Assembly: GCA_029261875.1 (NCBI GenBank)
Contig: JAJDAL010000059.1
Location: 4,115 to 68,114, forward strand
Length of the DNA stretch: 64,000 nucleotides
Reading direction: 5' to 3'
From: Deltaproteobacteria bacterium
GTDB taxonomy: Bacteria > Myxococcota_A > UBA9160 > JAJDAL01
Position numbers and translations under genes: made by a program. Of this stretch, positions 1 to 56,348 are shown piece after piece (positions within the stretch are counted from its first letter, which is position 1; every line of letters starts with the position of its first letter). The notes under the pieces were generated by a model. The model made no database searches, was not told the origin of the DNA, and saw only the letters and a list, made by a program, of their open reading frames with translations.

Positions 1-570
1 AGCCTCGACAGCGGACAGACGACGTTCCTCGAAGCGCCGAAGCTCCGGATATCGGGCAATGTGAGTGGATCCGACGTGGAGATCTACGCGGAAGACGCTT
101 TCGTGACGCAGAGCGCGGTCTTGAACGCTGCGGGAAATCTGAACTTCAACGACATCGCCCGCTTCGAGATGAACGGTCGTCTCGACGCCGGCGGTGCCGT
201 GCAATTGATCGGCGGCGACCTACGGCTTCGCGGTCCCAGCAACGTGAAGGCCGAGGACCTGGTTTTCATTTCCGCTTCGGGCTTCCTGGATCTGCGCGGA
301 ACCATCGAAGACGGCGACGAGGTCGAGATCGAAGCCTCTGGGATGGAAACGGCACCCAAGGCGGCAATCGTTTCGAATTTCGGCGTATCGATCTCGGTCT
401 TGCGCCATTTCACCCACCGGGGTCGGATCGATCGCAATGTGGAAGTCGATATTCAGACGGATACCTACCGCTTGACGGGCCACCACGTCCTGAACGGAAG
501 CGATTGCGTGATCTCGGGAGTGCCCGCAGCCAATTCCCAGCCGGCGACGGGCTGCAGCGAGCAGCCGTAG
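1..570 (+). CDS. 3' part of a hypothetical protein, possibly beta-helix/haemagglutinin-like (runs off the window start)
   Basis: Frame 1 is open from base 1 (SLDSGQTTFLEAPKLRISGNV...). Repetitive beta-strand pattern (LNAAGNL, LDAGGAV, ISASGFL). Stop TAG at 568-570. Confidence 0.55.
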   Translation, partial: SLDSGQTTFLEAPKLRISGNVSGSDVEIYAEDAFVTQSAVLNAAGNLNFNDIARFEMNGRLDAGGAVQLIGGDLRLRGPSNVKAEDLVFISASGFLDLRGTIEDGDEVEIEASGMETAPKAAIVSNFGVSISVLRHFTHRGRIDRNVEVDIQTDTYRLTGHHVLNGSDCVISGVPAANSQPATGCSEQP

Positions 571-51098: not shown

Positions 51099-51297
51099 CG
51101 TGCATCCTCCGTTCCAGAACCGGCCCAAACATAGCGGGATTCCGTCCCTTTCTTGGCGGGTGCAAATCGGTCCCCGCGATCGCGCCGCGATGGGCCCCAT
51201 CTCGCCGGTCGTATCGCTGCCCCCAGGCGGTCTTTCCCCGCTGGCCAGGCGCTGCCGGGCGGGGCACAATCGAGCAAAGCGCCCGGGAGGAAATCCG

Positions 51298-53439
51298 GTG
51301 ACTTCCAAGACCAGCTACGGAATCTGCATGCTTTGTGAAGCGGCCTGCGGGATCGTCGTCGAACACGACGGCACGCGGGTAGAGCGGGTGCGAGGCGACG
51401 AACGCGATCCCTTCAGCGCCGGTCACATCTGTCCCAAGGGCGTGGCCCTGGCGGACCTTCAAAACGACCCCGATCGCATTCGCCGCCCGCTTCGAAAGCG
51501 CGGCGACGAATTCGTCGAAATCCCCTGGGACGAGGCGCTCGAGGAAGCCGCCGAGCGCATTTGGCAAATTCAGTCGCAACACGGCAACGATGCCTTGGGG
51601 GTCTACACCGGCAATCCGACCGGCCACAGTTACACCGCAATCCTATCCGCCGACCACTTGAACAAGACGCTTAAGACCCGCAATCGTTTCTCGGCTGGAT
51701 CCGTCGATGCGCTGCCCCGCTTGTTGGTTTCGCGCTTGATGTACGGGAATCAGGCGATCCTCCCGATCCCGGATTTGGAGCGCACGGATTACCTGCTGGT
51801 ACTCGGCGCCAACCCCATGGTTTCGAACGGCAGTGTGATGACGGCACCGGACATCGCCGCAAGGCTTCGCGCCCTTCGCGCGCGCGGCGGAAAGCTCGTG
51901 GTGATCGACCCCAGGCGAAACGAGACCGCCGAGGTCGCCGACGCCCACTACTTCATTCGTCCGAGCACGGATGCGCTGTTCCTGGCCGCCATCCTGAATA
52001 CGCTTTTCGCCGAGAACCGCACGACGCTCGACCGGGTCGCGCCCATGCTCGAAGGCGCCGACGCGCTACCGGGCCTGTTCGAGGCCTTCACACCGGAGCG
52101 CGTGGCGGCTGCGGTGGGGATCGACGCGGACGACATCCGAAAGATCGCCCGCGACTTCTCCGACGCGCCGACGGCGGCCTGCTACGGGCGCCTGGGAACC
52201 TGCGTGCAGGATTTCGCCGCACTGTGCAGCTGGCTGATCGACCTCGTCAACATCGTGTCGGGCAACTTCGACCGAAAAGGCGGCAGCATGTTTCCGGCAC
52301 CGGCCACGGATCTCGCCGCGCTGGCCGAAACCATCGGCCAACGCGGAGAGTTCGACCGCTGGCGCAGTCGGGTGAGCAACCTGCCGGAGTTCAACGGCGA
52401 ACTTCCGGTGGCCGCTTTTGCCGAAGAAATGGAGAACCCGGGTCCGGGACAGATTCGCGGCCTCCTCACCCACGCGGGCAATCCCGTGCTTTCGCTCCCC
52501 AACGGGCGCCGCCTCGAGCGCGCCTTCGCGAAGCTCGAATTCATGGTCTCGATCGATATCTACCGCAACGAGACGACGCGCCACGCGGATTTGATCCTGC
52601 CCCCGACCTTCGGCCTGGAGCGCGAGCACTATCCCATCGTGGGACACGCGGTCGCGGTCCGAAACACGGTCCACTACGCGCGGCCCGTTCTCGACAAGCC
52701 CGCGGACAGCCTCGACGATTGGGAGATCCTGCTCGATCTCGCTACCCGCATCGAAAAGAAGCGCGGCGGAATCGGCCGCTACCTCGCTCCCGCCAAGCAC
52801 GCCGTGTTGCACGCCCTGGGACCGCGCGCGCTGTTGCGGGGATTGCTGCGACTGGGCCCCTACCCGCTCAGCTTGAAACAGCTCGAAGCGGCCCCCCACG
52901 GAATCGACCTGGGTCCGCTGTCCCCCCGGCTCCCCAAACTTTTGGGCAAGCAGGGACGCATCCAGGTCGCTCCGAAAATTCTGACCCAAGACCTGGATCG
53001 CCTCGAAGCGAGTGCCCAAACGCCGGGCCCGCGGCGCCCGCCCAACGGGTTGCTCCTGATCGGTCGCCGTTCGCTCCGCAGCAACAATTCCTGGATGCAC
53101 AACAGCGAACGCCTCGTGAAGGGACGCGACCGTTGTGTGCTTCTCATGCACCCGCTGGACGCCTCCGAGCGCGGCCTCGAAGGGGGCCAATCCATCGTCC
53201 TCAAATCCGCGGTGGGACAGATCGAAGTCCCCCTCGAAATCAGCGACGAAGTGATGCCCGGGGTGGTCAGCCTGCCCCACGGCTGGGGGCACGGGGGCGC
53301 GGGGACCCAGCAACGCGTCGCCAACGCCCACGCCGGCGCCAGCGTGAACGATGTCACGGACGACCGCCGCTTCGACCCGGTCTCGGGCACGACGAGCCTG
53401 AACGGCGTCCCGGTTTCCGTCAGCGCTGTAAGTGCCTGA
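51298..53439 (+). CDS. Molybdopterin-dependent oxidoreductase with an N-terminal [4Fe-4S] motif
   Basis: CMLCEAACG..ICPKG, VVIDPRRNETA, GNPVLS, NSWMHN and VSLPHGWGH motifs; GGAGG before GTG 51298. Confidence 0.92.
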   Translation: MTSKTSYGICMLCEAACGIVVEHDGTRVERVRGDERDPFSAGHICPKGVALADLQNDPDRIRRPLRKRGDEFVEIPWDEALEEAAERIWQIQSQHGNDALGVYTGNPTGHSYTAILSADHLNKTLKTRNRFSAGSVDALPRLLVSRLMYGNQAILPIPDLERTDYLLVLGANPMVSNGSVMTAPDIAARLRALRARGGKLVVIDPRRNETAEVADAHYFIRPSTDALFLAAILNTLFAENRTTLDRVAPMLEGADALPGLFEAFTPERVAAAVGIDADDIRKIARDFSDAPTAACYGRLGTCVQDFAALCSWLIDLVNIVSGNFDRKGGSMFPAPATDLAALAETIGQRGEFDRWRSRVSNLPEFNGELPVAAFAEEMENPGPGQIRGLLTHAGNPVLSLPNGRRLERAFAKLEFMVSIDIYRNETTRHADLILPPTFGLEREHYPIVGHAVAVRNTVHYARPVLDKPADSLDDWEILLDLATRIEKKRGGIGRYLAPAKHAVLHALGPRALLRGLLRLGPYPLSLKQLEAAPHGIDLGPLSPRLPKLLGKQGRIQVAPKILTQDLDRLEASAQTPGPRRPPNGLLLIGRRSLRSNNSWMHNSERLVKGRDRCVLLMHPLDASERGLEGGQSIVLKSAVGQIEVPLEISDEVMPGVVSLPHGWGHGGAGTQQRVANAHAGASVNDVTDDRRFDPVSGTTSLNGVPVSVSAVSA

Positions 53440-53477
53440 GAGCGGGCAAGCGCTACCCGGAGCGCCTCAAGTCGACG

Positions 53478-53507
53478 TTGACGAGTGCCGCTCAGTAGGG
53501 ATACGCT
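53478..53507 (+). promoter_or_regulatory. Sigma70 promoter of the leader peptide/DAHP synthase transcript
   Basis: TTGACG-18 nt-TACGCT. Confidence 0.6.
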
Positions 53508-53517
53508 AGAGGTCACC

Positions 53518-53613
53518 ATGTTGCCGATCGATTGCACCCAAACGCGCTATTTCGCCTTCTTCTTTACCTACCCCTGGTTCGAGACCAGGGCCGTGGGGAG
53601 TTGCGCCGAATAA
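53518..53613 (+). CDS. Aromatic amino acid attenuator leader peptide MLPIDCTQTRYFAFFFTYPWFETRAVGSCAE
   Basis: Translated by hand; GAGG RBS; 8 aromatic codons within 11 (5 Phe, 2 Tyr, 1 Trp). Confidence 0.85.
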   Translation: MLPIDCTQTRYFAFFFTYPWFETRAVGSCAE

Positions 53614-53635
53614 GAGCGGCACCAACGATTTACCC

Positions 53636-53669
53636 GAGGCCCTGGAGAAATCCGGGGCCTCTTTTTTTT
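53636..53669 (+). terminator. Attenuator terminator (3:4 hairpin)
   Basis: GAGGCCCTGGA-GAAA-TCCGGGGCCTC followed by T8. Confidence 0.9.
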
Positions 53670-53700
53670 GTCCGAAAGCAAAGTTCCATTGGAGATCGAA

Positions 53701-54771
53701 ATGCAGGATTCCCTCGAAAACAAGAACGTCGTCGACGTTCGTCCCCTGATTTCGCCAGCCGCCGTCAAACGGGACCTCCCCGTGCCGGCGGAAGTCGCAG
53801 CCAGCGTACTCGCCACGCGAGCCGCGGTGCGCGACCTGATTCACGGGCGCGACAGCAAGCGGGTTCTCGCCATCGTGGGGCCGTGCTCGATTCACGATCG
53901 GGGGGTCGCGCTCGAATACGCCCAGCGCTTGAAATCCGTCGCCGACGAGATCGCCGACAGCGTGCTGGTGTTGATGCGGACGTACTTCGAGAAACCGCGC
54001 ACGACCGTGGGCTGGAAGGGGTTGATCAACGATCCGGCGCTCGATGGGTCCTGCGACGTCCAGCGCGGGCTCTCCTTGACCCGTGAGATCCTGCTCGAGG
54101 TGGGAGCGATGGGCCTGGGCTGCGCGACGGAACTTCTCGACCCCGTCACGCCGCAATACGTGGGCGACTTGCTTTCCTGGGCTGCCATCGGCGCCCGCAC
54201 CACCGAGAGTCAGACCCATCGCGAGATGGCGAGCGGCCTGTCGATGCCCGTGGGTTTCAAGAATGGGGTCGACGGAGATCTGCGCAGCGCCAAGAACGCC
54301 CTGGCGTCGGCGCGGTCGTCCCACAGTTTCCTGGGCATCACGGCCGAAGGCGCCACCGCGGTCATCGTCACGCGAGGCAATCCCGACTCGCACGTGGTGT
54401 TGCGGGGCGGAGCCAGCGGTCCCAATTACGCCGCGGATTCCGTGCGCCAGGCCGCGGCGGCGCTGGCGGAGCCCGCGATCGCGCGGCCGATCCTGATCGA
54501 TTGTTCCCACGACAACTCGTCCCAGGACTTCACGCGCCAAGGCGCCGTGTGCCGAGCGGTAATCGATCAAGTTCGCTCGGGCTCCAACTCGATCCTCGGT
54601 TTCATGCTCGAGAGCAACCTTCATCCGGGCCAACAGAAATGGCATCGCGATTGCGATCTCGCCTATGGGGTTTCCATCACCGATGGATGCATCGGCTGGG
54701 AGGAAACCGAAACCCTTCTGCGCGAGGCCGCAGAGGCGGTGCGCAACCCGGGAATCCACTCCGCCGCTTGA
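53701..54771 (+). CDS. aroG: Class I DAHP synthase (3-deoxy-7-phosphoheptulonate synthase)
   Basis: GPCSIHD, YFEKPRTTVGWKG, IGARTTESQTHR, PVGFKN, DCSH and SITDGCIGW motifs. The aroF/G/H subtype cannot be resolved. Confidence 0.95.
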   Translation: MQDSLENKNVVDVRPLISPAAVKRDLPVPAEVAASVLATRAAVRDLIHGRDSKRVLAIVGPCSIHDRGVALEYAQRLKSVADEIADSVLVLMRTYFEKPRTTVGWKGLINDPALDGSCDVQRGLSLTREILLEVGAMGLGCATELLDPVTPQYVGDLLSWAAIGARTTESQTHREMASGLSMPVGFKNGVDGDLRSAKNALASARSSHSFLGITAEGATAVIVTRGNPDSHVVLRGGASGPNYAADSVRQAAAALAEPAIARPILIDCSHDNSSQDFTRQGAVCRAVIDQVRSGSNSILGFMLESNLHPGQQKWHRDCDLAYGVSITDGCIGWEETETLLREAAEAVRNPGIHSAA

Positions 54772-54823: not shown

Positions 54824-56263
54824 CTAGAGAGATTCGCTCGCGAGTCGCGCGTCGAGTTCCGCCCGCACGTGCGCGTGGCGCTCGCGCGTCAGGTCGTAGC
54901 GGCCAAAGATCCACAGCGAGGCCCCGACCAGGATGGCGATCGCGCAACCGCTCGCGTACCCGAGGTTGTGCACAACCGCTTCGGCGACGCTTTCCGGAGC
55001 CGCGCCGGGCGCGAGTCCTACGGCGTCGACCACGATCCCCGCCACCAGGCTGCCGATCCCGAAGAACGCCTTGGCGGCGAACGAGATGGCGCCGAAGAAG
55101 ACGCCTTCGCGCCGACGACCGTGGACCAGCTGATCTTCGTCCGTGATGTCCGCCATCATCGAGCGCGCGGTCACCATGGGAGCCGCAATTCCAAAATTCG
55201 CGACCAGGCCCGTGGTGAAAACGTAGAGCGGGAGATAGAAAGAACTCGAAAGACCGGGCCAGAAACCCGCGATCTTGAGAAAGATCGGGATGACGGTAAA
55301 CAGCGTGAAGATCTTCATGCCGCGGATGAACACGACCTTCTTGTCCAAGCGGTAGGCCTGGCCTCGCCAATAGCCCAAACCCGTAAAGATTCCCGTCCCC
55401 GAAGCCACGCCCCAGATGAAAAGATCCGCCGTGCTCACGCGCCAGAAGTACGTCCCCATGTGGAGCCCGAGGGAGACCGCGATCCCCCACGCCACATAGG
55501 TGACGAGGGTTCCCCAGAAGAGAGCCTGGAACGAGCGAAGTTTCAGGGCTTCGCGCATTCCGCCGAGCATGCTGCGAAAGATCGGTTCTCGCGCGGAATC
55601 CGCGTCGGCCTGCGGAAGCTGCGGGATGCACCAATGGGTCTTCGCGGCGGAAAGCACGATCAAGCTGAACATCAGGAGTGACATCGTGAGGGCAAACGGC
55701 GGGTAGGCGCCGGGATTCAATTGTCCGTTGGGAAAGGCATCCGTCGGCCGCATGAAGACCAATAGGCCGAGTGTCCCAGCGACGGCGTGTCCGATGCGGG
55801 TCAGGACCATTTGGATCGTCACGATGCTCGTTCGTTCCTGATAGTCCGTCGACAATTCCGCCCCGAGCGCCAGATGGGGCACGTGAAACAGGGTCATGGA
55901 AAATCGCGTCAAGACCGCAAAGACCGCCAGCCAGAGAAACAAGCCGCCCTGGCCGAGACCCTCGGGCGGCGCAAAGGTGAGATAGAAGAAGACGGAAACC
56001 GGCAGTGCGGACGCATACAGGAACGGGTGGCGGCGCCCGAAGCGCGACTGCATTCGGTCCGACAACGCACCCGCGAAAGGATCGGTGATCGCGTCGAACA
56101 ACAGCGCGATCATGATGGCCTGCCCCGACAGGAAGCCCGACAAACCCACGACCTGGGTGTAGTAAAACAGCAGGAACAGCGTGTAGGACTCGTTTTTGAG
56201 CCCTTCGGCGGCCTGGCCGACGCCGTACCAGATCTTCGTGGGGGTGGGGACCGTTCCATTCAT
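54824..56263 (-). CDS. MFS/GPH (glycoside-pentoside-hexuronide) family transporter
   Basis: DAITDP..SDR..SRFGRRHPF, ALGAELSTDYQERT and SMMADITD..GRRREG motifs. Confidence 0.9.
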   Translation of the reverse strand: MNGTVPTPTKIWYGVGQAAEGLKNESYTLFLLFYYTQVVGLSGFLSGQAIMIALLFDAITDPFAGALSDRMQSRFGRRHPFLYASALPVSVFFYLTFAPPEGLGQGGLFLWLAVFAVLTRFSMTLFHVPHLALGAELSTDYQERTSIVTIQMVLTRIGHAVAGTLGLLVFMRPTDAFPNGQLNPGAYPPFALTMSLLMFSLIVLSAAKTHWCIPQLPQADADSAREPIFRSMLGGMREALKLRSFQALFWGTLVTYVAWGIAVSLGLHMGTYFWRVSTADLFIWGVASGTGIFTGLGYWRGQAYRLDKKVVFIRGMKIFTLFTVIPIFLKIAGFWPGLSSSFYLPLYVFTTGLVANFGIAAPMVTARSMMADITDEDQLVHGRRREGVFFGAISFAAKAFFGIGSLVAGIVVDAVGLAPGAAPESVAEAVVHNLGYASGCAIAILVGASLWIFGRYDLTRERHAHVRAELDARLASESL

Positions 56264-56348
56264 CGCTGGCAAGCCTACCCCGTTCGACACTCGGCGACGC
56301 AATCCGGTTTCAGGCCCGGGTGGATTTCCCCGTGGTAAGCGTCGGGCG

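Follow-up and report, generated by a model that had tools for sequence, protein, structure and literature searches.

A predicted aromatic leader-peptide attenuator upstream of a type I-alpha DAHP synthase gene in an uncultured deltaproteobacterial lineage

Architecture of the locus

The window is the whole stretch of DNA that was analysed, 64,000 nucleotides of contig JAJDAL010000059.1 from a Deltaproteobacteria bacterium (assembly GCA_029261875.1). On its forward strand, an oxidoreductase gene (51100-53439) is followed by a gene for a type I-alpha DAHP synthase. The interval between the two genes contains a short open reading frame (ORF) that is rich in aromatic codons, RNA segments that can pair in alternative ways, and an intrinsic terminator. 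The features are as follows.

53478-53507, plus strand: candidate sigma-70-type promoter, picked out by eye, with a -35 element TTGACG (53478-53483), an 18-nt spacer and a -10 element TACGCT (53502-53507)
53508-53512, plus strand: AGAGG, Shine-Dalgarno-like, 5 nt 5' of the leader ATG
53518-53613, plus strand: leader ORF MLPIDCTQTRYFAFFFTYPWFETRAVGSCAE, from ATG at 53518 to TAA at 53611-53613, 31 codons plus TAA, with 5 Phe, 2 Tyr and 1 Trp
53548-53580, plus strand: aromatic control block YFAFFFTYPWF, codons 11-21 of the leader
53567-53579, plus strand: region 1, the 5' arm of the 1:2 (anti-antiterminator) hairpin in the minimum-free-energy fold
53583-53597, plus strand: region 2, the 3' arm of the 1:2 hairpin, of which 53585-53597 doubles as the 5' strand of the antiterminator
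53633-53645, plus strand: region 3, the 3' strand of the antiterminator, overlapping the 5' arm of the terminator
53636-53669, plus strand: intrinsic terminator (3:4), with a stem at 53636-53661 (11 pairs, 8 of them G-C, loop of 4) and T8 at 53662-53669
53701-54771, plus strand: type I-alpha DAHP synthase (AroF/G/H type), 356 aa, with GGAG at 53691-53694 and a start 31 nt past the terminator

The first-pass annotation had proposed a 31-codon leader containing YFAFFFTYPWF, and direct reading of the sequence gives the same frame at the same positions. For comparison, every small ORF (10-60 aa) was listed across the complete genome, which has 5.68 Mb and a GC content of 63.5%. The leader is the only one of these 46,568 ORFs that has 8 aromatic residues within an 11-residue window. 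The runners-up in the same genome have 7 (4 ORFs) or 6 (11 ORFs).

The helices named in that annotation are also present. CCCTGGT (53572-53578) pairs with ACCAGGG (53584-53590), and in the free fold this pairing lies within a 13-pair hairpin, 53567-53579 with 53583-53597, which spans codons 17-21. The antiterminator segment CCAGGGCC (53585-53592) is the exact complement of GGCCCTGG (53638-53645) in the 5' arm of the terminator. When the RNA is folded without region 4, additional antiterminator pairs are seen between 53594-53597 and 53633-53636. The terminator was found as described, an 11-bp stem followed directly by T8. The energy of the antiterminator duplex is -30.8 kcal/mol, and 0 of 300 dinucleotide-shuffled leaders attain this value. 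The fold of the whole 181-nt region has a z-score of -2.3.

The RNA that ends before region 4 folds into the 2:3 antiterminator. For the full leader, the terminator is the lowest-energy fold even with region 1 masked, in equilibrium folds that represent the ribosome as a masked footprint. Since the full-length RNA favours the terminator despite the masking, the switch would have to be kinetic and be made during transcription. A kinetic choice of this kind is usual for classical attenuators.

The start of transcription is probably located just 5' of the leader ATG. A consensus promoter scan of the region did not call the candidate TTGACG-18-TACGCT. The strict pattern TTGA[CT]N-16..19-TAnnn[TA] is present 5' of the leader at 15 of 53 related loci, and a looser TTGACN...GGTA is found at others. 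If the candidate promoter is right, the Shine-Dalgarno-like AGAGG may fall outside the transcript. At many related loci, TTGACN is followed after 16-19 nt by (G)GTAnnn, and this motif ends just 10-15 nt 5' of the leader start codon. A promoter-like motif so near to the leader start suggests that the leader mRNA may have a very short 5' untranslated region or be nearly leaderless.

The DAHP synthase scores 449.7 bits against TIGR00034 (cut-off 173.2) and 490.3 bits against NF009395 (cut-off 343), and it falls below the cut-offs of the isoenzyme-specific AroH and AroG models. A second DAHP-synthase-like gene in the genome (G000:C42:128675-129424; L113:1201-2319) is type I-beta-like, has an extra N-terminal domain, and scores below the NCBIfam cut-offs (256 against 335 bits). 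A third match to PF00793 in the genome, on contig C41, is a KDO8P synthase. No match to a type II DAHP synthase was found in the genome. The leader had been said to control entry to the shikimate pathway. A DAHP synthase gene does lie downstream, but with the second, type I-beta-like gene present the leader probably controls one of two entries.

The next gene 3' of the DAHP synthase gene is a convergent ORF of 492 aa (54824-56302, minus strand). Because it is convergent, the attenuator would control a single gene here and not an operon.

Conservation of the leader and its helices

The source genome is the sole member of its family among the genomes compared, and its nearest relatives belong to the same order. 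The DAHP synthases of these relatives are 46-63% identical to the one in the window. An initial script found an aromatic-rich small ORF about 170-200 nt 5' of the closest orthologue at 13 of 29 other loci; before the second, more distant paralogue (about 50% identity) it found none. The same arrangement is present in six named metagenome-assembled genomes (MAGs), two labelled Candidatus Binatia, two 'delta proteobacterium', one Myxococcales and one Spirochaetaceae.

We built a covariance model, R1, from 20 aligned relatives (alignment A1) and counted full-length matches of at least 35 bits. There are 60 such matches in 59 of the 151 genomes of the order, spread over 10 of the 12 families sampled. 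Downstream of every one of the 60, and no more than 97 nt away, lies a DAHP synthase homologue, one of them a fragmentary frame. A tally of 76 of 151 genomes at E<=0.001 was set aside because it included terminator-only matches. The first-pass annotation had named a lack of conservation of leader or helices as grounds for rejecting its proposal, and the outcome is the opposite: leader, terminator and antiterminator recur at the orthologous DAHP synthase gene in these 59 genomes with compensatory changes. The genomes are related and are not independent, so these counts describe the spread of the element and are not statistics. One genome has two matches; the second copy (69.9 bits; L157:1301-1450, minus strand) lies before a DAHP synthase frame that seems to be fragmentary or frameshifted. 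Eleven further full-length matches below 31 bits (L186-L196) have no adjoining DAHP synthase gene and were treated as noise.

In its own genome, the site itself is the only full-length R1 match at E<0.01, and elsewhere in this genome R1 finds only terminator-like partial matches. A crude scan of the same genome for a small ORF with an amino-acid run, a hairpin, a tract of at least T5 and a gene gave the present site as the only convincing case. When the search was extended beyond the order to a sample of the phylum, another family of the class was represented by 4 genomes, and 2 of them have the element before a DAHP synthase gene. From the 123 genomes of other classes came a single full-length match, unlinked and scoring 40.5 bits, along with two matches to the terminator only.

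In a tree of 110 DAHP synthases built with FastTree, all 22 element-bearing sequences fall within one clade of 37 (support 99). This clade also contains 10 Nitrospirota sequences and 5 others without a strong R1 match. The clade of the order's second paralogue (9 sequences) has no element. The lineage had been described as far from enterics, and this agrees with the genome GC of 63.5% and with the enteric DAHP synthases compared, which are 49-52% identical and form a separate clade. The ten Nitrospirota DAHP synthases (L031, L033, L035-L042; 56-60% identical) nest within the element-bearing clade and have no leader. This pattern suggests either transfer of the gene without the leader or loss of the leader.

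The hairpin and T8 could in principle do no more than terminate the upstream oxidoreductase gene, with the aromatic ORF a chance frame in the spacer. That gene is on the same strand, and its end lies 197 nt 5' of the terminator hairpin. We find this explanation hardly credible. Leader and terminator precede the DAHP synthase gene in 59 genomes, whereas the oxidoreductase gene adjoins the element at 0 of the 68 other loci searched (about 42 of them with at least 800 nt of upstream flank). The supposed chance frame is the most aromatic-dense of the 46,568 ORFs, and the promoter-like TTGACG-18-TACGCT is located between the upstream gene and the leader. Since the oxidoreductase is beside the element at none of these other loci, the element travels with the DAHP synthase gene.

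The first-pass annotation had suggested looking for covarying 1:2, 2:3 and 3:4 helices in relatives, and there is pairing support for 3:4 and 2:3. In the MAFFT alignment, 6 of the 12 pairs predicted for the 3:4 terminator have compensatory changes. On 38 model-aligned sequences, 94.7% of the terminator cells are paired and 38 cells are changed on both sides, which 0 of 500 shuffles reach; this alignment was fitted to the terminator helix and hence favours the terminator statistics. The U-tract after the terminator hairpin is broken in several relatives.

For the antiterminator, RNAalifold predicts the 2:3 core helix in the 20 relatives when region 4 is left out. One G-C pair of this core gives way to A-U in two sequences, that of the window and that of a MAG labelled Myxococcales. 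At this position of region 3, the Myxococcales-labelled MAG has a matching change in region 4, and the window has a G-U pair. In the core columns, 85.7% of cells pair, and the covariation is modest (0.117 against 0.097, reached by 20 of 500 shuffles). The weak column-wise signal is attributed to the extension of the helix, which shifts register between sequences and lineages, and per-sequence duplex energies were used for 2:3 instead. These energies range from -20.7 to -43.9 kcal/mol in all 20 relatives. In 8 of these relatives the energy is matched by no more than 2 of 300 shuffles; in 6 it is matched by at least 27. When the 38 elements were compared all against all, region 2 paired with its own region 3 at a mean of -31.0 kcal/mol and with non-cognate region 3 at -26.7 kcal/mol. 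The cognate mean is reached by 0 of 10,000 permutations, though differences in GC between genomes could inflate this result.

The 1:2 helix is clear in the window, but its support across the family is weak. The core of region 2 pairs upstream in 35 of 38 leaders, a count no better than shuffles (31.5 of 38 after the upstream sequence is shuffled). The mean energy of the helix is -25.6 kcal/mol, compared with -21.9 kcal/mol in the shuffled controls.

The reading frame is also conserved. In 65 of 66 distinct elements, there is an ORF with start and stop that is fixed relative to the helices. In all 38 aligned elements, 6-27 nt separate the beginning of the region 2 core from the stop codon, and 23-44 nt separate the stop codon from region 3. 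In the 38 relatives, the 45-48 nt that precede region 2 have a mean of 6.3 aromatic codons in one frame compared with 0.86 in the other two. Apart from the aromatic residues, the leader peptides are unalike, and the aromatic positions themselves drift between alignment columns. The conserved GGGGC of region 2 sits in differing codon phases among the leaders. Because the phase of GGGGC varies and the aromatic block is confined to one frame, selection acts on codons in the 5' part of the element and on RNA in the 3' part. Such a combination is the signature expected of a leader-peptide attenuator.

These data also bear on a switch that would work without translation, by binding a ligand, protein or tRNA (riboswitch, TRAP-like or T-box-like), with the small ORF incidental. 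The conservation of GGGGC in region 2 and GCCCCGAG in region 3, which exceeds that of the peptide, would fit such a device. The constant placement of the ORF against the helices (65 of 66) and the enrichment of aromatic codons in one frame only argue against it. A cmscan of 53300-53900 at E up to 10 found no Rfam leader, T-box or riboswitch family, save for sub-threshold terminator-like matches; the best was BjrC68 at 24.3 bits (gathering threshold 39). We consider a switch of this type very improbable.

The proposed switch and the amino acids it may sense

Very probably, the type I-alpha DAHP synthase gene is controlled by a transcription attenuator of the trp/phe/his class, one that is ribosome-mediated and works through a leader peptide. 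With Phe-, Tyr- and Trp-tRNA charged and plentiful, the ribosome would pass the aromatic block. It would then be over region 2, or at the stop codon between regions 2 and 3, as region 3 emerges. The 3:4 terminator would form, and the transcript would end at T8 near 53669. If no ribosome is loaded, 1:2 would pair first and termination would again be expected. If an aromatic tRNA is poorly charged, the ribosome would stall in codons 16-21 and cover region 1. Region 2 would then be free to pair with region 3, the terminator would be blocked, and transcription would read through into the DAHP synthase gene.

A response to all three aromatic amino acids is plausible, given the codon content and the stall geometry. 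Across 65 leaders, Phe is present in 64, Tyr in 60 and Trp in 64, and all three are present in 59. The median leader has 4 Phe, 1 Tyr and 1 Trp. For the geometry, we assumed a ribosome footprint that reaches about 13 nt past the first base of the P site. Under this footprint, stalls with F16, Y18, W20 or F21 in the A site would cover part or all of region 1 and leave region 2 mostly free. Stalls at F12-F15 would be too far upstream to reach the inner hairpin.

The attenuator could instead be real but act effectively as a sensor of Phe, or of Phe and one other amino acid, with the Tyr and Trp codons compositional or structural. The dominance of Phe in the median leader is consistent with this. 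So is the position of a conserved TGG, which lies within or beside the 1:2 hairpin's 5' arm and has at least two paired bases in 25 of 38 leaders. Trp is normally a rare residue. It nevertheless makes up 4.7% of the residues of the 65 leaders, and it is as constant among them as Phe, with Tyr in all but five. Under the assumed footprint, a ribosome stalled at Y18 or W20 would also cover region 1, and one stalled at F12-F15 would be too far upstream to do so. In a passage of one review, transcription under the Phe-Tyr-Phe leader aroR of Corynebacterium glutamicum is raised by Phe limitation only (PMC11802643), which favours the Phe sensor. Taking both sides together, we regard the Phe sensor as unlikely, though with a real chance of being right. 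As a pattern of conservation, codons for three aromatic amino acids on one leader are well supported.

A bolder reading is that the leaders form an undescribed, order-wide family in which a single leader acts as an OR gate with three inputs. The stall window that opens 1:2 would contain at least one codon each for Phe, Tyr and Trp, and a shortage of any aromatic aminoacyl-tRNA would turn on one dedicated DAHP synthase paralogue. The lineage may also re-code similar leaders for other amino acids. We hold this reading tentatively and think it somewhat more apt to be wrong than right.

Several other leaders were noted in the course of the searches. Two genomes of the order have an Ile-rich leader with 5 Ile in 11 codons (L183:1301-1449, minus strand, and L184:201-350), which R1 matches weakly at 33.9 and 32.4 bits. 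The one in L183 is just 5' of a LeuA/CimA-like (HMGL-type) gene. The Ile-rich leader looks like a similar attenuator for another amino acid. Before type I-alpha DAHP synthase genes, a Tyr-rich ORF with a hairpin and a T-run is present in a Desulfobacter MAG and a 'delta proteobacterium' MAG, a short YYFF ORF with a T8 terminator in a Pseudomonadales MAG, and an FFF ORF with no visible terminator in two Geomonas genomes (these aromatic-leader loci are L063:1300-1491, L081:1284-1479, L104:1313-1491, L089:1356-1485 and L098:1357-1485). In the Desulfobacter, 'delta proteobacterium' and Pseudomonadales cases, R1 matches the terminators only. All of these leaders are apparently unrelated. If the order-wide OR-gate reading is true, such unrelated Tyr- or Phe-rich leaders would mean that leader control at the shikimate entry has originated repeatedly.

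Relation to known attenuators and significance

The closest system in function is the aroR-aroF attenuator of C. glutamicum, reportedly the work of Neshat et al. in 2014. In passages of a 2025 review and of Mentz et al. 2013, it has a leader with a Phe-Tyr-Phe motif before a DAHP synthase gene and acts by ribosome stalling and attenuation (PMC11802643, PMC4046766). It is described there as responding to Phe, with tyrosine availability without effect (PMC11802643). As far as these descriptions go, the two systems are alike in having an aromatic-codon leader before a DAHP synthase gene that is one of two in its genome. They differ in that aroR is short and without Trp, whereas the window leader has 8 aromatic codons including Trp, and Trp is found in 64 of 65 relatives. 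The organisms belong to different phyla, and the comparison is one of function and description only.

The E. coli pheL-pheA attenuator, which we take to be the Rfam family Phe_leader, belongs to the same mechanism class. The first-pass annotation had noted that FAFFFT also occurs in pheL, and the translation of the K-12 record confirms that the motif is common to both leaders. In contrast, pheL has Phe codons only and controls chorismate mutase/prephenate dehydratase. At the RNA level no similarity was detected: Phe_leader has no match in the window at E up to 10, and the pheL region of E. coli gets just 4.6 bits (E 1.1) from R1.

Multivalent leaders are known in enterics, namely thrL (Thr and Ile) and ilvL (Leu, Val and Ile). 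They resemble the present leader in that one leader contains codons for several end-product amino acids of a branched pathway, but they serve other pathways. No three-amino-acid aromatic leader was found in the open-access literature searched.

The step itself is controlled differently in E. coli. The first-pass annotation had set the locus against the control of the E. coli DAHP synthases by TyrR, TrpR and feedback inhibition, and a passage of a review does state that these genes are repressed by TyrR and TrpR (PMC11802643). The step and the end-product logic are the same as for the window attenuator. According to the same source, E. coli uses DNA-binding repressors with one isoenzyme (aroF, aroG, aroH) per amino acid (PMC11802643), compared with one RNA/ribosome device on one isoenzyme here. 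The contrast with E. coli overstated the novelty of the locus, since leader control of a DAHP synthase was already published for Corynebacterium.

Besides C. glutamicum aroR, no other DAHP synthase leader was found in the open-access literature searched. Earlier predictions could be contained in supplementary tables or in subscription papers such as Vitreschak 2004, Panina 2001, Lopatovskaya 2010 and Neshat 2014. The main text of Naville & Gautheret 2010 has no mention of aroF/G/H, DAHP or related terms. The main text of Seliverstov 2005 likewise has no aroF/G/H or DAHP terms, and 'aromatic' occurs there only in two reference titles. A search of Korolev 2016 for DAHP-related terms gave two unrelated word-prefix matches only.

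Judged from its sequence, the attenuator is real, complete and conserved, and represents a new family of a textbook mechanism. [quoted passage not shown] The carriers among named MAGs are labelled Candidatus Binatota, unclassified Deltaproteobacteria and Myxococcales, and to our knowledge almost nothing is known of gene regulation in these lineages. Together with the alignment of 38 sequences (A4), R1 could serve as the seed of a new RNA family, and the annotation of small ORFs and intergenic sequence in MAGs could benefit. Should the leader sense all three amino acids, it would be the first aromatic counterpart of the multivalent thr and ilv leaders and a compact natural sensor of aromatic tRNA charging.
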